From a bacterium (GTDB lineage: Bacteria; Patescibacteriota; Minisyncoccia; Phycocordibacterales; UBA9973): DNA of 49,090 nucleotides. Positions within the stretch are counted from its first letter, which is position 1. The number at the start of each line of letters is the position of its first letter. Position numbers and translations under genes: made by a program. Where the stretch lies: contig JBAXTD010000002.1 in the NCBI GenBank assembly GCA_037130335.1, positions 1 through 49,090 on the forward strand, in the 5' to 3' direction. The notes under the pieces are model-generated. The model did not search any database. It was given only the letters and a program-made list of their open reading frames with translations, and was not told the DNA's origin. This document shows, piece by piece, positions 38,734-46,676 of the stretch.

Positions 38734-39096
38734 CTAATTACTTTTAATAAAGTTTACCTTATAAATTTGTGATGTTGTCCTGTTGAATTTATCCTTTGCT
38801 GATATGTCTATTATATTGTATCCCTCAAGTAGTGCAATCGTGTCATTCCAGTGGCCATCTTCTTCGACTGATACGATACGACCGTTGATTGTGATTGATA
38901 TTGCGTGATATGCGGTTCCTGATAAATTCAAAACTGAAGTGCGGACTGTTTCGTTGTTTTGTATTCCAGAAACCGACATGTGAATTCCAAACAATAAATC
39001 TCTACCTCGCCATGTACCATATCCAATGATGATAATAAAAAGCAATGTAAGGCTTGCCACACTCAGTAATTTTTTTCCGGTAATGCCTTTAATCAT
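38734..39096 (-). CDS. Hypothetical membrane-anchored protein with an Ig-like domain
   Basis: N-terminal TM segment, then LSGTA...ITINGR.V...GHWNDTIALLEGYNIIDISAKDKF. Confidence 0.75.
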   Translation of the reverse strand: MIKGITGKKLLSVASLTLLFIIIIGYGTWRGRDLLFGIHMSVSGIQNNETVRTSVLNLSGTAYHAISITINGRIVSVEEDGHWNDTIALLEGYNIIDISAKDKFNRTTSQIYKVNFIKSN

Positions 39097-39100
39097 GGAA

Positions 39101-41350
39101 TTATTGTTGTGGTGGTGTTGGATTAATGTCGTCCATCATACCGTCACCTGGTTTTATAAGTACATCGCGTGGTTTGGCACCTGAGCCGGGGCCGATTACT
39201 CCACGTTCTTCGAGTATGTCGATGAGTCGTGCGGCACGAGCATATCCCACACCGAGTTTACGTTGAAGGTACGATGTCGATGCTTTGCCGGCTTCGATTA
39301 CAGTTGTGCGTGCGTCTTCATATAATTCATCGTCGTTGTCTGTATCACCTTCGAGTGATGATTCGAATATTGTTTTGCCGGCACTTACTGTACCTGTGAG
39401 TGCGATTTCGTCAGCACCAGAACTTTCATTGTTATCGGCGATGAATTTTACAACTGACTTAACTTCGTTTTCGGAAATAAATGCACTTTGTAAACGTTCT
39501 GGTTGAGGCATATCTCCACCCAAAAAGAGCATATCTCCAGCACCGAGAAGTTTTTCGGCGCCTGCTTGATCGAGAATAGTGCGTGAGTCAATTTGTGATG
39601 CAACTTGTAGGGCGAGACGTGATGGCACGTTTGCTTTGATAAGTCCTGTAATGACGTTGACACTTGGGCGTTGTGTTGAGAGTACGAGGTGGATTCCAAC
39701 TGCACGAGACATTTGAGCGAGACGGACGATTGCAGATTCGAGTTCTCGTGGATATGCCTGCATGATATCGGCAAGTTCATCGATAATAATGACAATATAT
39801 GGCATTGGATCCATTGCGTCTTCGCCTTCAGAACCTTTTTTGGCTGTGGCGAGGACGTTTTTGTGATAACTTTCGATATCACGAACTGATTCTTTTTCGA
39901 GAATGTTGTATCTACGATCCATTTCTTTGGCTGCCCATTTGAGTGAAAGGATTGCTTTCTTTGCGTCGGTAATAACTGGCGTGAGAAGGTGAGGAATCTT
40001 GTTATATAGTGTAAGTTCGACACGCTTTGGATCGATCATAATAAATCGAAGTGCTTCTGGTCCGTTGCGATACAACAAACTTGTAATGATTGCGTGAATT
40101 GTAACTGATTTTCCAGAACCTGTTGCTCCGGCCACAAGCATGTGTGGCATTTTTGCGAGATTTCCAATATGACCCATACCATTAATTGCACGACCGAGTG
40201 CTACGGTGAGAGGTTTTTCAGATTTTGCGAATCGTTCTTCGGAAAGGAGAGATGCAAGTCCGACAATTGATTTTGCTTTGTTTGGAATTTCGATTCCAAC
40301 CAAAGATTTACCAGGAATTGGTGCTTCGATACGAATTGGGTGAGCGGCGAGTGCGAGTGAGAGATCGTTTTGGAGTCCGAGAATTCGTGAAAGTTTGACG
40401 CCTTCGGCTGGTTTGAATGCGTATCGTGTGACTGTCGGTCCGATTGTGACTTCATCCATTTCAACTTCGATTCCAAAGTTTGAAAGTGAACGTTTGATGA
40501 TGTTTGCGTTTGCTTTTACGTCTCCGACATTTGGTTTACCTTTATCGCTTGCAAGCAAATCAAGTGGGGGAGCAATATACGATGAATGTTTGCGAACAAT
40601 CTTTTTTGCAATTTTTTCTACGTCCAAAATTTCATCTTCTTCGATTGGTTCAGGTTCTTCTGGTTGAATTGCGGCGAGTGCTTTGTCTGGAATTTCTGCT
40701 TCGTTTTCTTGTTTGATATCGGCACCAGAAATTGTGTATGCTTTATTTTTCTTTCGGTTTTCTAAATATGCATTAATAGCTGATTCAAATTTTTTGTAGA
40801 TTGCATTAAAGAGTGTGAGTGTTGGTCGTGTATCAAAAAGCATGATGAGCGAAATGATGAGTATTGCTCCGAGAAATAGTGTCGCACCGACACCTGCAAA
40901 AAGTGTGAGAAAAATCCATGATGATGCAAATCCAACCAATCCTCCGGAATGATATGGAGTACTTGCGACATCAATTAATCCGAGCGATCCGATTACAAGT
41001 AATGCGTACGCGATGCCTTCGATTAGTGCAATGTTTGGTCGAATTCCTTTCATGAATCTAATTCCAAAAATTGCAAAAATAAGTGGAATGAGTACGTACC
41101 CAACTCCAAAAAGTTTAATAAATAAATCGTGTGTAAATCCGCCCGCTGGTCCACCTCCACCAAATCCAGCGATCACAAAAAAAATCGCAAAGGCAAAAAG
41201 TACGACACCCAAAACAGTGTGTCGAGTTTCTTCTTTTAATTTATTTTTGTTTGAAATTTCCTTTTTTCTTGGGGAAGTTTTACGCTCAGATTTTTTGGTT
41301 TCTTCAATCTCTTCGGGTTCATCTTTTTCAATATTTTTGCTCGTTGCCAT
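39101..41350 (-). CDS. ftsK: DNA translocase FtsK/SpoIIIE
   Basis: 4-TM N domain, RIEAPIPGK..VGIEIPN, PHMLVAGATGSGKS, DPKRVEL, DELAD, RLAQMSRAVGIHL, gamma domain SYLQRKLGVGYARAARLID. Confidence 0.98.
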   Translation of the reverse strand: MATSKNIEKDEPEEIEETKKSERKTSPRKKEISNKNKLKEETRHTVLGVVLFAFAIFFVIAGFGGGGPAGGFTHDLFIKLFGVGYVLIPLIFAIFGIRFMKGIRPNIALIEGIAYALLVIGSLGLIDVASTPYHSGGLVGFASSWIFLTLFAGVGATLFLGAILIISLIMLFDTRPTLTLFNAIYKKFESAINAYLENRKKNKAYTISGADIKQENEAEIPDKALAAIQPEEPEPIEEDEILDVEKIAKKIVRKHSSYIAPPLDLLASDKGKPNVGDVKANANIIKRSLSNFGIEVEMDEVTIGPTVTRYAFKPAEGVKLSRILGLQNDLSLALAAHPIRIEAPIPGKSLVGIEIPNKAKSIVGLASLLSEERFAKSEKPLTVALGRAINGMGHIGNLAKMPHMLVAGATGSGKSVTIHAIITSLLYRNGPEALRFIMIDPKRVELTLYNKIPHLLTPVITDAKKAILSLKWAAKEMDRRYNILEKESVRDIESYHKNVLATAKKGSEGEDAMDPMPYIVIIIDELADIMQAYPRELESAIVRLAQMSRAVGIHLVLSTQRPSVNVITGLIKANVPSRLALQVASQIDSRTILDQAGAEKLLGAGDMLFLGGDMPQPERLQSAFISENEVKSVVKFIADNNESSGADEIALTGTVSAGKTIFESSLEGDTDNDDELYEDARTTVIEAGKASTSYLQRKLGVGYARAARLIDILEERGVIGPGSGAKPRDVLIKPGDGMMDDINPTPPQQ

Positions 41351-41397
41351 GTGTATATTTTAGCACAAAAATTGGTATTACAAATCTGATTATGTGG

Positions 41398-41507
41398 TCA
41401 CGGAGACACAGTATTTTAAAGACCGCACGGAGCCCGACGGGGCGAGTCCCGAACGAAATTTTCAGCAGAAAATTATCGTGTGTCTTTAGAGTACTGTGTC
41501 TCCGTGA
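41398..41507 (+). ncRNA. Long intergenic stem-loop (26-bp base helix, branched top); candidate ncRNA or REP/MITE-like element
   Basis: TCACGGAGACACAGTATTTTAAAGAC (41398-423) pairs with GTCTTTAGAGTACTGTGTCTCCGTGA (41482-507). The only non-Watson-Crick pairs are two G-U. Confidence 0.55.
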
Positions 41508-41533
41508 ACTCATGTTGGTGTATGAAAATGCTA

Positions 41534-41561
41534 TTGCCTTTTTTATACGGACGCGTATAAT
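41534..41561 (+). promoter_or_regulatory. Promoter of the HTH gene
   Basis: TTGCCT (41534-39), 16 nt, TATAAT (41556-61). Confidence 0.55.
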
Positions 41562-41570
41562 CGACCACGT

Positions 41571-42318
41571 AACGGACATGTAATTTGCTTTACATTACTC
41601 GCAAAAATAATAAATCAAAAATGCAAGAAAAGGACATAAACCAACAGAATAATTCATATAAAGGACAGTCTATTAATGACACGGAAATAGAAGCTTTCTA
41701 CCAAAGGAATAATCAAATGTCCTTTATTCTCAAAAAGACAGAGAAGATAGTAACTGCGATTTATATGGTCACAGACTTCATGTTGGAGTCAGAGCCAATG
41801 CGTAAAGAATTACGGACACTTGGTGTGTCACTCCTTTCCAAAACTCGCAAGATTTCACAAAAGGCAACTGAGCCTGACTACACAATTATTGATGATATAA
41901 AAAACGGAATTGATGAAACAAATTCGTTTTTGAATATCTCTATCACGATCGGTTTGGTTTCTGAAATGAACGGACGAATTTTGATCAATGAGCTCGAAAA
42001 AATTTATAAAGAATTCCTCGGTGTCTATAATGATAGACGAGTTTCCGTAGTGACTCATCCAGGATATGCCAACATAATTTTGAAGCAAGAAATGTTTGAA
42101 ATTCCAGTTGTAGAAATTCCAAAAATTCAAACAAATTTCGACGGTCAAAATTATAAAGGACAAGAAGAATCAAAAAATGTCCTTTATAAAAAACCAAGTA
42201 TTATTGAGGTTAAAAAGGATACTGTATTAAAGACTGGAAATCTCGGTTTAAAAATTGCTCGTAGAAATGACGTATTAAATATTGTAAAAAGCAAAGGTCA
42301 GGTTTCAATAAAAGACAT
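41571..42318. repeat. Dispersed (TAT)AAAGGACA / TGTCCTTT(ATA) boxes in and just before the HTH gene
   Basis: Exact octamers at 41629-36, 41660-67 and 42155-62 (+) and at 41718-25 and 42178-85 (-). Variants ACGGACAT 41572-79, ACGGACAC 41812-19 and ATAAAAGACAT 42308-18. Confidence 0.75.
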
Positions 42319-42439
42319 AATTTTGATGCTCAAGGATGTGAGTGAAAAAACAATACAACGAGAATTATTTTCGCTCGTCAAAGAAGGTGTTTTGAAAAAA
42401 GAAGGGGAGAAAAGATGGAGTGTTTATAAATTAGTTTAA
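41621..42439 (+). CDS. Protein with an N-terminal helical domain and a C-terminal DeoR-like winged HTH
   Basis: C terminus RRNDVLNIVKSKGQVSIKDI...VSEKTIQRELFSLVKEGVLKKEGEKRWSVYKL; N terminus KKTEKIVTAIYMVTDF..EPMRKELR. Start set at ATG 41621. Confidence 0.8.
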   Translation: MQEKDINQQNNSYKGQSINDTEIEAFYQRNNQMSFILKKTEKIVTAIYMVTDFMLESEPMRKELRTLGVSLLSKTRKISQKATEPDYTIIDDIKNGIDETNSFLNISITIGLVSEMNGRILINELEKIYKEFLGVYNDRRVSVVTHPGYANIILKQEMFEIPVVEIPKIQTNFDGQNYKGQEESKNVLYKKPSIIEVKKDTVLKTGNLGLKIARRNDVLNIVKSKGQVSIKDIILMLKDVSEKTIQRELFSLVKEGVLKKEGEKRWSVYKLV

Positions 42440-42496
42440 TCAAAATTTTGTGTTCGAAATCTTGATTTTTGACCTCAGATATGCTAGTGTGGAAAT

Positions 42497-42541
42497 ATGA
42501 CTGCGAACCAGTTGAAAAACATTTTAAGTGGAACCAATTAA
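42497..42541 (+). CDS. Possible leaderless 14-aa micro-ORF (MTANQLKNILSGTN)
   Basis: TTGATT (42462-67), 17 nt, TAGTGT (42485-90) with TG; ATG follows 6 nt later, matching the leaderless spacing seen elsewhere in the window. Confidence 0.35.
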   Translation: MTANQLKNILSGTN

Positions 42542-42572
42542 TTTTGGAACCGCTGTTTTTTGCTTTTTGCAG

Positions 42573-42581
42573 TTATCCACA
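42573..42581 (+). promoter_or_regulatory. Perfect DnaA box
   Basis: TTATCCACA, 10 bp upstream of the -35 of the promoter at 42592. Confidence 0.6.
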
Positions 42582-42591
42582 TTAAATTATT

Positions 42592-42620
42592 TTGCCCTTA
42601 TCAGAAGGAGATAATATAAT
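42592..42620 (+). promoter_or_regulatory. Near-consensus sigma70 promoter with no downstream ORF
   Basis: TTGCCC (42592-97), 17 nt, TATAAT (42615-20). Confidence 0.75.
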
Positions 42621-42623
42621 GTA

Positions 42624-42796
42624 GGTGCGTAGTGTACCGTGTACTATATGTATGCGGAGATTACGCGTAACGGTATTTTTCGAAGTGCGGAGCGGAGGAT
42701 AGGCCTTTCGTTTTTGCATCTCCGAAAGACTACGTACGGACTGGTCATTGAAAACAGCATAGTGTGATCGCATACGGAAAAATGTTTTCACACACC
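42624..42796 (+). ncRNA. Candidate ~170-nt rod-shaped ncRNA (6S-like architecture, unproven)
   Basis: GC-richer island between the promoter and a T tract, with five nested helices whose wobble pairs are G-U on the + strand. Confidence 0.6.
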
Positions 42797-43040
42797 TTTT
42801 TATTTTTCTAATTTTTATTTAAAAATATTTTTTATATTTCTAAATAAATTATTCAAATAATTTGGATAATCTGTTTTTGTGTCGAATCCGTATTTCTTCT
42901 TGAGAAGAGGCGATGATGAGAATTGTATAAAATATTTTTATTGAGTTTGTAAAAACTTTTCAGAAATTTTTTTCAATTTAGTTTCGCAACACTCGGAAGA
43001 TGCCATGTCGACACGGCACGCATTTATTAGTGTTTTACAA

Positions 43041-43089
43041 GCGATGTTTTTGTATACAAAATATTATTATAGTTGTACAACGACATTGC
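43041..43089 (+). promoter_or_regulatory. 5' UTR hairpin of the large surface-protein gene
   Basis: GCGATGT/ACATTGC outer helix and TTGTAT/GTACAA inner helix, ending 17 nt before the ATG at 43107. Confidence 0.45.
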
Positions 43090-43106
43090 ATATTAAAAAA
43101 ATTTCT

Positions 43107-46100
43107 ATGACTAACCTCAAATCAAAAATCGCGAAAGCAGGTTTGGGATTGTTGGCAGGAGCAGTCATGTTCGCTGGCGTAACAGCTAGTGCAATGACTC
43201 AAGCACAAGCACAAGCACTCGTTGCAAGTCTCGGTATTACCGGAGCATCTGCAACAGCACTTGTAACTGCGCTTACAACAACTGGTGGTACTACAACTAC
43301 TACTACTGGCTCAGGCTTTACATTCACAAAAAATCTTTCATTAGGTTCAAAAGGAGCTGATGTTACAGAACTCCAAAAAGTTCTTAACTCTGACTCTGAC
43401 ACTACAGTTGCATTATCTGGCGTAGGCTCAAAAGGCAACGAAGGAACAAACTTCGGACCAGCTACAAAAGCAGCTGTAATGAAATTCCAAAAGAAACACA
43501 ACATTACTCCTGCTTCAGGTAACGTTTTTGCACTCACACGAGCTGCATTGAACGCTATGGGTGGTACTACAACTACTACAACAACAGGAGGAACAACTAC
43601 AACTGGAACACAAACTGGTCCAGTAACAGCAATGTTGTCTTCTGATACACCAGCAGCAGGTAACGTGATCCTCGGACAAGCAACAGCTGACCTTGCTCAC
43701 TTTACATTCTCTGGTAACGGAACAGTAACAGCAGTTACTCTTAAAGAAACAGGAATTTCAGTTAGTACAGATCTTACAAATGTATATCTCTATGATGGAG
43801 TTACACGAGTTGGAGATGCAGCAACTGTTAATTCTAACGGTGTAATCACTTTCAGTGGTTTGAATCTTATGGTCTCAGGATCAAAGACAATCTCTGTAAA
43901 GGCTGATTACTCAGCTAATGGAACAACAGCAACAATCGGTGTTAACCTTACAGGATTTACAGCAAATGGTTCAACCAATACTGTTAACCTCTCTGGTAAC
44001 TTAATGTATGTTGTTTCTGCTCCAAGTAACATGACAGCAGCACAACTTTGTTCTGGTGGATGTGGATCTGTAACAGGAGCTACAAATAACCAAATCGCAA
44101 GTTCTGCTGTTGATGCAGGATCAATGTCAAAAACAATTTGGCAAGCTCCTCTTCAAGTTAGTGGACGCATTGGATTTCTTAAGGCTGCAACATTCCGATA
44201 TATCGGATCTGCATCTTATGACGCTCTTGCAAACATCAAACTCGTAATCGATGGACAAGTTGTTGGAACTCCTTCAACTGTTAACTCAAGTGGTTACATC
44301 GTATTTGATCTTTCAAGTGCACCATTTAGTCTCAGTACAAATAGTCACAGTGTAGAAGTTCGCGCTGATATCGTAAAAGGTTCAGCTCGTTCATTCCAAA
44401 TCTCACTTCAGAACGCTTCTGACTTGATGATTACTGATTCTCAGCTCAACATAAATGTTGCTCCTACTACAAACAGTATAACAACATTTTCAACAAGTCA
44501 GGCTGGAACAGTTTCAGTTAATGCTGGATCTATTTCAATCAGTATTGATCCTACTTTCTCAAGTATGACTAACGTTACTGGTGGTGCTACAAACACAGTA
44601 GTTGGTAAATACAAATTGCGTGCCTATGGTGAAGACATGAAAGTTTCAACACTTTCTATCACTCCTACTTTGACAAGTATGTCACCAACAGTGAACGGAT
44701 TGAACAATGTTACTTTGTTCTTTAACGGCTCACAAATTGGTTCATCATACAGTTGTGATTCAGGTACGAACACTTCAACAGATGACTGTGGAAGTGCACA
44801 CTCTTTCACACTTGGATCATCAATGATCGTACCAGCAGGTGTTGATAGTTTCCTTGAAGTTCATGCTGATGTTCAAACTCTTGCTAATGTTGCTTACACT
44901 GCAGGAACAATTAAAACATCAGGAACAATTGCAATTGGAAATGCACAAGGTTTGAGTTCACTTCAGACAAACTCTGGAGCATTCACTCTTTCACAAACAA
45001 CAGGTCTTTCAGTACAAACTGGACAACTCGTTGTTGCAAAGAACACTGCATACACAAACCAAACATTTGCTCCAAATGCATCTGGTCTTAAGATTGGATC
45101 ATTCATTCTTCAAAACCAGAGTTCATCAGAAGCAATCCGTGTAACAAATCTTGCTCTTGCTCTTACAGCAACATCAGGATCTGTTCTCACATCAACTGCT
45201 GGTGCTGGTCCTGAACTTGCTGATCTCACAAACGTAAAAACTTCTGAGACTTCAGGTTCTGGTGCTAACCCACAAAATGCAGCAGCTGCACTCAACTACT
45301 CAGTTGATTTCACTATTGCACCAGGAACATCAAAAACAATCGATATCTTTGCTGATTTGGGTTCAACAAATTCTGTTGGATTCGAAGTTCAACTTACTCC
45401 TACAGCATACGGCGCAGGTTCAAACGTAACTTTGACACCTAGTTCTGCAACTGTTGGTCAAGTTGTTACAATCGCAAATGGTACAGTTTCTGCTCCATCA
45501 TTCGTAGCATCAAATTCAACAGCTGCACAATACATTGCAACTGCTGGAACAAGTGCAACTGATATCACAAAAGCTGAATATCAATTCACAGCTACAAACG
45601 GAACAGCAAATATCAACAACCTCCGCTTTGCTGTTAAGGCATTAAGTGTAGGTGCAATTTCAACAATCCATGTTGGAAGTGTAACTTCAAACGTTGTTAC
45701 TCCTTCAACTACAACTGTAGGAACAGGTGGTTGGACAACTACTGCTACAACAGTTAGTGTAGCTTCAACTTCAAGTATTCCAGCAGGTACTATTCTTACT
45801 GTCGATTCAGAAGATATGCTTGTTTCAACTGTTGTTGACGGTACAAACTTTACTGTAGTACGTGGTGTTAACGGCACATCTGCTGCTCTTCACACAGCTA
45901 CAACAGTTGTTAATCCAAGTGGACTTGCAACTCTCAACGGCGTAAACATCTCAGTTCCAAATGGAACTTCAGGTACATACGTTGATGCATACGAGAGTTT
46001 CACTCCTGCAAACGGAATGACAGGTGCTATTGCTTCAAAAGCAACTTCAACTGCTTACCTTACATACGTGAAGTCAACAATTGGTTCAACTGTTTCAGAT

Positions 46101-46676
46101 CAAGCTACAGCAACTCCAGTTGCTGCTAACCAAATGACAACAGTTGGTTCAAAACCAATCGTAACAGTAGCAAATGGTGGTATGTCAGGTTTGATCCTTT
46201 CTGGTTCAGGTAAAATCGGTGAAGTTACAGTTGCTGCTGATACAGCAGGAAGTATTAAGGTTAACCAACTTGTATTTACAGTTGGTTCATCAAATATCAC
46301 AACTCCAGCTTACACTGCAATCTACCTCGCAGATGGATCATCAGCTATTACAACAAGTGACTGTATAATCTCAGGATCAACAATTACTTGTGAACTCGCT
46401 GCTGACCAAGTTAACAATACTTCAGATGTATCTACACTTAGTGCATCTGCAGTACACACAGATGGAAACGGTTACTTGATCCCAGGCTCTGGCTCAAAGA
46501 CATTCAGTCTTTACGCTACAGTTGGTGGAACAGCTGTTTCAGGAACTACTCCAACAGTTACAACTTCAATTACATCCGCTGGATTTAATTGGGATGACGT
46601 TGCTGGAAATGGTACAAACCTTAATGGTACTAACTTGTACAACTTCCCAACAAACAGTTACTCATACCACTCATAA
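43107..46676 (+). CDS. Large secreted S-layer-like surface protein with a peptidoglycan-binding domain
   Basis: Signal peptide (MTNLKSKIAKAGLGLLAGAVMFAGVTASA); Thr-rich linkers flanking FTKNLSLGSKGADVTELQKVLN...FGPATKAAVMKFQ; about 1000 aa of T/S/G/A/V-rich beta sequence; strongly biased codon use. Start at ATG 43107. Confidence 0.8.
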   Translation: MTNLKSKIAKAGLGLLAGAVMFAGVTASAMTQAQAQALVASLGITGASATALVTALTTTGGTTTTTTGSGFTFTKNLSLGSKGADVTELQKVLNSDSDTTVALSGVGSKGNEGTNFGPATKAAVMKFQKKHNITPASGNVFALTRAALNAMGGTTTTTTTGGTTTTGTQTGPVTAMLSSDTPAAGNVILGQATADLAHFTFSGNGTVTAVTLKETGISVSTDLTNVYLYDGVTRVGDAATVNSNGVITFSGLNLMVSGSKTISVKADYSANGTTATIGVNLTGFTANGSTNTVNLSGNLMYVVSAPSNMTAAQLCSGGCGSVTGATNNQIASSAVDAGSMSKTIWQAPLQVSGRIGFLKAATFRYIGSASYDALANIKLVIDGQVVGTPSTVNSSGYIVFDLSSAPFSLSTNSHSVEVRADIVKGSARSFQISLQNASDLMITDSQLNINVAPTTNSITTFSTSQAGTVSVNAGSISISIDPTFSSMTNVTGGATNTVVGKYKLRAYGEDMKVSTLSITPTLTSMSPTVNGLNNVTLFFNGSQIGSSYSCDSGTNTSTDDCGSAHSFTLGSSMIVPAGVDSFLEVHADVQTLANVAYTAGTIKTSGTIAIGNAQGLSSLQTNSGAFTLSQTTGLSVQTGQLVVAKNTAYTNQTFAPNASGLKIGSFILQNQSSSEAIRVTNLALALTATSGSVLTSTAGAGPELADLTNVKTSETSGSGANPQNAAAALNYSVDFTIAPGTSKTIDIFADLGSTNSVGFEVQLTPTAYGAGSNVTLTPSSATVGQVVTIANGTVSAPSFVASNSTAAQYIATAGTSATDITKAEYQFTATNGTANINNLRFAVKALSVGAISTIHVGSVTSNVVTPSTTTVGTGGWTTTATTVSVASTSSIPAGTILTVDSEDMLVSTVVDGTNFTVVRGVNGTSAALHTATTVVNPSGLATLNGVNISVPNGTSGTYVDAYESFTPANGMTGAIASKATSTAYLTYVKSTIGSTVSDQATATPVAANQMTTVGSKPIVTVANGGMSGLILSGSGKIGEVTVAADTAGSIKVNQLVFTVGSSNITTPAYTAIYLADGSSAITTSDCIISGSTITCELAADQVNNTSDVSTLSASAVHTDGNGYLIPGSGSKTFSLYATVGGTAVSGTTPTVTTSITSAGFNWDDVAGNGTNLNGTNLYNFPTNSYSYHS

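Follow-up and report, generated by a model that had tools for sequence, protein, structure and literature searches.

Locus, promoter and linked surface-protein gene

The stretch analysed here (the window) comprises 49,090 nucleotides (nt) of a Patescibacteriota contig (JBAXTD010000002.1), and our subject is an untranslated element on its plus strand, located between a gene for a winged-helix protein of 272-284 amino acids (aa; plus strand, ending at 42439) and a gene for a secreted surface protein of 1189 aa (43107-46676, plus strand; Pfam PG_binding_1), with ftsK (39101-41350, minus strand) as a flanking gene. A sequence-only reading of the window had described the element as an orphan promoter driving a rod-shaped, 6S-like RNA. 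We find that it is a real plus-strand RNA, absent from RNA catalogues, and that it is not 6S RNA. We consider it probable, with considerable room for doubt, that the element is a promoter-proximal nut-like antitermination module heading a ~480-nt untranslated leader of the surface-protein gene, its presumed cargo.

The promoter of the element, P2, is where the sequence-only reading had placed it: the hexamers TTGCCC and TATAAT, separated by 17 nt, occupy 42592-42620 on the plus strand, and this 12-bp −35/−10 pair agrees with the consensus at 10/12 positions in a consensus scan. The predicted transcription start (+1) lies near 42627, and both the hexamers and their spacing are kept in 19/19 nearest homologues. 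Since TATAAT and TTGCC are unchanging among the homologues while the bases able to pair with them vary, we read this conservation as a DNA-level signal rather than as RNA pairing. A perfect DnaA box, TTATCCACA (42573-42581, plus strand), lies 10 nt upstream of the −35 hexamer and is the sole perfect DnaA box within the window. A DnaA box with at most one mismatch is found in 37 of the 42 distinct loci that carry the boxA-like motif described below (perfect in 29), always in the same orientation and shortly before a TTGCnn −35 hexamer and TATAAT, and DnaA may bind the box at 42573-42581.

To collect relatives, the winged-helix protein was used as an anchor, which gave 100 loci. In 27 of these (19 distinct), nhmmer located the element directly downstream of the winged-helix gene and in its orientation. 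A covariance model of 15 sequences recovered the element in ~27 of 80 species-level genome loci, all with the same strand and place. Altogether, about 40 related loci (Paceibacteria) carry the element in the same position and orientation. All 27 winged-helix-anchored loci that extend far enough have, as their next same-strand gene, one for a large secreted protein with a signal peptide and the PG_binding_1 motif L(K/S/T)VGS(T/K)G; this gene starts 250-750 nt after the boxA-like motif. In the window, the true start codon of this gene is at 43107, opening the conserved start ...UUUCUAUGACUAAC with its signal peptide.

The linkage also appears where the winged-helix gene is not used as an anchor. 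A metagenome scan for the pattern TTATCCACA-N28-45-TATAAT-N3-33-TCWTTGAMAA returned 81 loci, and in 32 of the 62 loci with at least 700 nt of downstream sequence the distance from boxA to the start of such a surface-protein gene is below 700 nt and often 120-350 nt. At such short distances there is no room for a separate promoter and terminator, so that the unit is the 5′ untranslated region (UTR) of the gene there. The winged-helix gene itself is found just upstream in 17 of the 25 such loci with a surface-protein gene that have enough upstream DNA (loci L106-L175). The promoter can therefore not be called an orphan, as had been claimed: the surface-protein gene follows on the same strand in the homologous loci examined, and in the short-leader relatives the unit belongs to that gene. 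In the genome studied here, the element would likewise be co-transcribed with the surface-protein gene.

A conserved three-hairpin fold

The stretch after P2 is richer in G+C and terminates in CACACACC followed by a T tract (42797-42807), in agreement with the sequence-only reading. On the plus strand, 42622-42800 folds with −61 kcal/mol, better than any of 200 dinucleotide-shuffled controls (z = −4.0; 0/200), and the minus strand of the same segment reaches only z = −1.6. The RNAalifold consensus of a 15-sequence alignment consists of three local hairpins (42627-42666, 42673-42733 and 42762-42793), in which 93.4% of the positions are paired and 18 pairs, or 55 cells, are compensatory (0/500 shuffles; slid controls 32-72% paired). 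Many of these pairs are G-U, which assigns the RNA to the plus strand; the same argument from G-U wobbles had been made for the rod, and it holds in the conserved fold. The nested helices that had been listed for the rod are each complementary in the window, but across the 15 homologues the rod is only 77.8% paired, with its closing helices at 50-77%, and its compensatory measures were matched by 84/500 and 64/500 shuffles. Thus, the related loci do show covariation, for the three hairpins and not for the rod.

The three hairpins differ in how they are conserved. The 5′-terminal hairpin (42627-42666, plus strand; helices 1-3) keeps its structure with a variable sequence: 11 of its 12 pairs have changed on both sides, and 83-93% of the cells are paired. 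The second, a long irregular hairpin (42673-42733, plus strand; helices 4-7, 97-99% paired) with the invariant apex GGAGGAUAGGCC, occupies a boxB-like position, stops 9 nt ahead of boxA and is found only in the near and middle clades; it shows few compensatory changes because most of its columns never vary. The third hairpin, P4 (42762-42793, plus strand; −11.5 kcal/mol), is built from GUGUGA..UCACAC closing GCAU-ACGGAAAA-AUGU, and its stem is broken by an internal loop. Among 32 distinct sequences, its outer stem is 88.8% paired and 6/6 pairs are compensatory (56 cells; 0/500 shuffles), in a register that was fitted by picking columns according to the scores of their pairings (slid registers 32-57% paired); on the alignment of the boxA-P4 portion, RNAalifold returned no structure, owing to register shifts.

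Downstream of P4, the U tract UUUUUAUUUUU (42797-42807, plus strand) could act as a leaky intrinsic terminator or attenuator. It is present in 6/7 nearest aligned relatives and missing in the middle clade, and in the far members the U-rich tail after P4 is the complement of boxA. The consensus scan did not score P4 with its U tract as a terminator, and the family has no conserved terminator at the 3′ end, since the hairpin is conserved and the U tract is confined to the nearest clade. Given that half of the family lacks the U tract, we regard P4 as a structural hairpin and not as a conserved gene end.

These results bear on the identity of the RNA. With Rfam 15, nothing in the window reached a gathering score, and at E <= 10 the segment 42400-43050 gave only chance matches to miRNA and snoRNA families and none to a bacterial family; the 19 homologous loci gave zero matches. 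Signatures of transfer-messenger RNA (tmRNA), RNase P and the signal recognition particle (SRP) RNA were found neither by eye nor with Rfam, as the sequence-only reading had stated. The apex GGAGGAUAGGCC resembles CR-I of RNase P, a candidate that was rejected for want of a partner in an RNase P-type P4 and of a model match. The 6S covariance models (RF00013, 6S-Flavo, Bacteroidales-1 and relatives) did not match the segment 42400-43050 even at E <= 10, and they gave no match in the 19 loci. A divergent 6S RNA, folding as a rod whose central bubble binds the RNA polymerase holoenzyme, is therefore a most improbable description of the element. It would suit the size of ~175 nt, the consensus promoter, the good folding energy and the complementarity of the rod helices in the window. 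Against it stand the missing family match, the lack of covariation in the closing and middle helices of the rod next to a competing fold that does covary, the distant members, which lack the 5′ two thirds and retain only boxA-P4, and the tie to a single protein gene, unlike ssrS. Moreover, what had been taken for the central bubble holds the invariant boxA-like motif of the family. With 6S RNA (SsrS; RF00013 and relatives), the element shares size and a strong promoter alone; it has no rod, no conserved central bubble and no Rfam match, and it is fixed to one gene. One false 6S candidate is thereby struck off. What did stand of the earlier proposal is its other half, an uncatalogued, transcribed and structured RNA: there is no Rfam match in the window or the 19 loci, the covariation is strong, and contigs of relatives occur in RNA runs (see below).

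Two other views of the segment fare no better. The plus-strand 42-aa and minus-strand 69-aa open reading frames (ORFs) were rejected as genes. Homologues differ by indels of 1, 2 and 4 nt, and their 5′ part is 45-55 nt long; because these indels are not multiples of three, the small ORFs are not genes, which bears out the earlier statement that there is no credible sense ORF. It is also very unlikely that the locus is a DNA-level element, either a replication origin or a DnaA-titrating region, in which hairpin potential is incidental. The perfect DnaA box, the AT-rich DNA downstream and an inverted repeat across the promoter would fit this idea, but there is a single box and no DnaA-box cluster, box-like sites in the window are at chance (16 found vs 16.6 expected), the GC skew has no lasting sign change here, and the covariation includes G-U pairs, which are RNA- and strand-specific. 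A replication origin was rejected on these grounds.

The boxA-like core and the antitermination reading

The only segment that is invariant across the whole family is G(A/G)UCAUUGAAAA(C/U), kept in all members (32 distinct sequences). In the window it forms the boxA-like motif GGUCAUUGAAAAC (42743-42755, plus strand), placed in a single-stranded stretch (42734-42761) between two hairpins. P4 starts 6-8 nt after the motif in all members, and the distant ones have lost or replaced the first two hairpins and retained boxA and P4. The pattern [AG][AGT]TC[ATC]TTGA[AC]AA has 56 matches in the collected loci, of which 53 lie on the plus strand between the winged-helix gene and the next gene; we estimate that chance would yield ~1 match. 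In Bacillus subtilis, the rrn boxA consensus is AUGAUCUUUGAAA, the motif directly follows a small 5′-terminal hairpin, and its binding by NusB has been seen by nuclear magnetic resonance (NMR; 2026 paper, PMC13753749). Comparison of GAUCAUUGAAA in the window with GAUCUUUGAAA of the B. subtilis rrn boxA (PMC13753749) shows 10/11 positions to be equal, and the differing position is U in two relatives, as in B. subtilis. The gammaproteobacterial boxA is GYTCTTTAANA, in which C4 and T6 are critical (PMC5725501); measured against this gammaproteobacterial consensus, the window motif agrees at 7/10 specified positions and keeps both C4 and T6. The family variants GUUCUUUGACAA or GGUCUUUGACAA come near the E. 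coli/gammaproteobacterial consensus, and UCUUUGAAAA and UCUUUGACAA are also present in relatives. The motif stands between a promoter and a long transcription unit, on the strand that is transcribed, as judged from the contigs of relatives. The spacer between 16S and 23S, ahead of 23S, is the textbook place of boxA. One match of the pattern scan, L166, falls precisely into such a setting in another organism, within a 16S-tRNA-tRNA-23S spacer and 58 nt before the 23S gene.

From these features, we propose the following sequence of events. Transcription would begin at the sigma-70-type promoter TTGCCC-17-TATAAT, with the DnaA box just upstream and a second promoter-like block ~130 nt further up. 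The nascent RNA would form two hairpins, then expose the boxA GGUCAUUGAAAAC, and then form the third hairpin. The boxA would recruit NusB-S10, together with NusA and NusG, so as to turn the polymerase termination-resistant and let it cross the U-rich leader, the weak P4/U-tract terminator and finally the 3.6-kb gene. With less certainty, boxA might afterwards pair ~115 nt downstream and thereby enclose the P4 domain. Binding of Nus factors (NusB-S10) at the window boxA is what the match to known boxA sequences would predict.

This last step rests on a segment termed anti-boxA, CUGUUUUUGUGUCGAAUCCGUAU (42871-42893, plus strand), which is complementary to 42733-42756 (RNAduplex −19.4 kcal/mol). 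Most members have a corresponding partner 57-270 nt downstream, whose flanks are clade-specific yet stay complementary. When the whole boxA segment was paired with its own or with other members' downstream region, the energies were −16.9 vs −15.3 kcal/mol (0/20000 permutations), a difference to which base composition may contribute. A cruder long-range test, with only the boxA core used to find the partner, lacked significance (p = 0.29), and the MAFFT alignment was out of register for the long-range helix. Taken together, the boxA/anti-boxA helix is moderately supported by these predictions, and the complementarity of boxA to a downstream stretch suggests that boxA is accessible only in nascent RNA. 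Within the anti-boxA, the motif GUGUCGA (42879-42885) recurs 100-170 nt past boxA in near and far members (among them L129, L132, L151 and L160). It is present even where boxA differs (GAAAAC or GACAAC), and it may be a boxC-like element rather than a pairing partner only. The mRNA start region of the surface-protein gene, UUUCUAUGACU (43097-43112), has no Shine-Dalgarno (SD) sequence, is conserved in near relatives and is complementary to the boxA GGUCAUUGAAA (42743-42753) at 10/11 positions; boxA or its partner might hence affect initiation of translation too.

Evidence for transcription comes from metatranscriptome contigs (Logan) of relatives, which are unstranded and may include DNA carry-over. 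Within 39000-42805, long contigs of 90-99% identity from four metatranscriptomes cover only 42519-42800. Three relatives' contigs extend 45-184 nt beyond P4, and the later blocks of the leader and the start of the coding sequence are covered at similar depth (3-14 over the element vs 3-7 over the mRNA start). From P4 to the AUG, conserved blocks and hairpins follow one another and, judged by eye, differ by compensating changes, which indicates that the leader is transcribed down to the AUG.

Several observations weigh against antitermination of a single long leader. The nature of the contigs just mentioned is one of them, and four relatives' contigs stop at 42788-42800. A spacer of ~70 nt after P4 and its U tract is AT-rich and poorly conserved. 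A short RNA may also be made, given that P4 and UUUUUAUUUUU look like a usable terminator in the window and its closest relatives. A weak promoter match (9/12) lies at 43034-43062, and a promoter may thus exist inside 42810-43100. As to the motif itself, position 5 is A in most members, where published boxA consensus sequences have U, and the predicted full-length fold has boxA in a helix; the conservation of boxA could serve this helix rather than NusB binding.

Part of this evidence would also suit an independent small RNA, in which transcripts from P2 end at the P4/U tract and give a stable RNA of ~175 nt. We hold this to be possible but doubtful as a full account. In variants of it, the RNA could be a decoy in trans for NusB-S10, or its single-stranded GGUCAUUGAAA could pair with UUUCUAUGACU of the neighbouring surface-protein mRNA. 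A promoter and a hairpin with U tract do enclose ~175 nt both in the window and in the relatives nearest to it, the contig ends and the poor conservation of the following spacer agree with a 3′ end at this place, and RNAduplex chose the 10/11 complementary start-codon region as the site for boxA in L096. However, the U tract is missing in half of the family, other contigs pass P4, the short-leader relatives have the promoter-boxA unit clearly as the 5′ UTR of the gene, the depth over the element is not above that over the mRNA start, and P4, with its internal loop, is of modest stability. In the nearest clade, a separately terminated ~175-nt RNA is a live alternative, which could coexist with the leader. 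A more elaborate version for this clade, in which the ~175-nt RNA is freed at the P4/U tract, is abundant and offers its boxA as a NusB-S10 decoy under a DnaA-gated promoter, strikes us as quite improbable. Equally so is its extension, by which the status of replication initiation would set the free Nus complex for the transcription of rRNA and of the surface protein, with the anti-boxA choosing between decoy and leader.

Alternatively, the element may be a sensing attenuator that acts in cis as a switch: the P4 terminator would compete with a helix between UGAAAACA, which is the 3′ half of boxA (42749-42756), and UGUUUUCA, the 3′ strand of P4 (42783-42790), or with one between the P3 sequence UUUUCGA and UUGAAAA. 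NusB-S10 on boxA, or a ligand or protein at the GGAGGAUAGGCC apex, would then choose between termination and read-through. The alternative 8-bp pairing wins the local minimum free energy (−14.6 vs −11.5 kcal/mol), UUUUCGA/UUGAAAA (helix 5) is 97% paired in the 15 sequences, and the anatomy is riboswitch-like, with conserved junction and loop nucleotides and variable peripheral stems. A Nus complex is moreover reported to repress suhB via the boxA of its leader (PMC5725501). Both alternative helices fall into near-constant columns, so that covariation speaks neither for nor against them; the P3 apex and UGUUUUC are confined to the near and middle clades, in contrast to the family-wide boxA-P4, and no candidate ligand is evident. 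We judge the attenuator unlikely.

The element can be compared with several known systems. As in the rRNA antitermination signal, with its boxB, boxA and boxC and the factors NusB-S10, NusA, NusG and SuhB, the window has a boxA that shares 10/11 positions with that of B. subtilis, located a few nt past a hairpin close to the 5′ terminus of the RNA (PMC13753749 for B. subtilis rrn). Like rrn operons, it combines tandem strong promoters with a long untranslated RNA to protect. Unlike them, it precedes a protein gene, mostly has A at position 5, carries a covarying hairpin after boxA and a DnaA box at the promoter, and has a downstream complement with which boxA seems to pair later. With lambda nut it shares the succession of boxA, a 6-8 nt spacer and a hairpin with a partly conserved loop (P4), although P4 has no GNRA-like pentaloop and the element belongs to a cellular chromosome; to our knowledge, there is no N-like protein for it.

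CRISPR array leaders also carry boxA. Further examples in non-rRNA 5′ UTRs, conserved across species, are those of suhB in E. coli/Salmonella and of a ParE-like toxin gene of Citrobacter (PMC5725501). As in all of these, boxA stands here within the untranslated 5′ portion of a non-ribosomal unit. The suhB-type boxA is found in Gammaproteobacteria within ~50 nt of the start codon, or at the array leader, and that of suhB represses its gene, whereas the boxA studied here is separated by 120-750 nt from the surface-protein gene that follows it, and occurs in bacteria of the candidate phyla radiation (CPR). Genes for S-layer proteins, such as slpA of Lactobacillus and of Thermus, have long structured 5′ leaders and tandem promoters; those leaders are, as far as we know, described as mRNA stabilisers or autoregulatory sites and not with a boxA. 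The element shares with slpA the abundant surface protein, two tandem promoters and a long folded 5′ UTR, and differs in a far longer, modular leader. DnaA-regulated promoters include that of dnaA, which is autoregulated, and that of sda in B. subtilis. Like these, P2 has a consensus DnaA box right at the promoter; it differs from both in its single box at about −50, ahead of the leader of a surface-protein gene.

If our reading were true, an rRNA-type boxA/Nus antitermination system would drive the main cell-surface protein of CPR bacteria, from a promoter with a DnaA box. Regulation by Nus factors would then reach a structural protein gene, beyond rRNA, suhB and CRISPR arrays, in a phylum without genetics, and the 0.3-1 kb of folded untranslated RNA ahead of these surface-protein genes would be accounted for. 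It would further indicate DnaA as a transcription regulator of envelope synthesis.

Signals upstream and along the leader

Upstream of P2, at a distance of ~130 nt, lies the promoter-like block P_up (42462-42490, plus strand), which consists of TTGATT (42462-67), a 17-nt spacer and TG-n-TAGTGT (42482-90), with a predicted +1 near 42497. It is conserved in 17/17 aligned homologues and is a putative promoter. None of the relatives' RNA contigs extends upstream of ~42519, which fits a start of P_up transcripts at ~42497 and speaks against transcripts that run on from the winged-helix gene. These transcripts probably run through the P2 region. The possibility that P2 is itself a segment of a longer structured RNA from P_up was rejected: the stretch from −35 to −10 is foldable, but RNAalifold gave no consensus fold.

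Between the two promoters, a terminator-like hairpin can be read from the sequence at 42527-42561 on the plus strand (AGUGG-AA-CCAA-UUAAUU-UUGG-AA-CCGCU followed by U6), and the relatives have hairpins of differing sequence with a U run at this position. From the predicted leaderless start at 42497, a 14-codon mini-ORF, MTANQLKNILSGTN* (42497-42541), runs into this hairpin and its U6, and it is kept only in the closest relatives. The segment 42462-42561 may provide a tandem promoter, or else a small attenuator that is translated and precedes the main promoter. A long imperfect inverted repeat, CACAUUAAAUUAUUU / AGAUAAUAUAAUGUAGG, spans P2 (42578-42626), and the bases right after TATAAT are complementary to the DnaA box in its 3′ half. 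A dimeric regulator, for which the neighbouring winged-helix protein is one candidate, could use this repeat as its operator; alternatively, the repeat could form a hairpin in P_up transcripts. The winged-helix protein may be a dedicated regulator of the surface-protein gene; no AAAGGACA box, a type reported from within the winged-helix gene, was found between 42440 and 43200.

Downstream of the element, the consensus scan also returned a minus-strand promoter-like site, TCGACA-17-AATTAT (42857-42885), which faces the element and overlaps the conserved GUGUCGA block. Further along the leader, an invariant block of 39 nt, AGUUUCGCAACACUCGGAAGAUGCCAUGUCGACACGGCA (42980-43018, plus strand), is identical in 8/8 aligned relatives, including distant ones. 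The block includes a short palindromic hairpin as well as an SD-like GGAAGA, after which comes an AUG (43005) that gene callers mistake for the gene start.

The pattern scan yielded two further sets of loci in other contexts. In L123, L134, L139, L162, L163 and L168, the 3.5 kb or more after the pattern contain no ATG-initiated ORF of at least 150 aa (standard code) and no Rfam match, which could reflect a reassigned stop codon or large uncatalogued RNAs. In the metagenome contigs L103 and L157, the unit of DnaA box, TATAAT and boxA lies 25 nt before a type IV pilin-like ORF (MKKNKGFTLIELLVVIAIIGILA...), and the module thus serves the gene of another abundant surface structure too.

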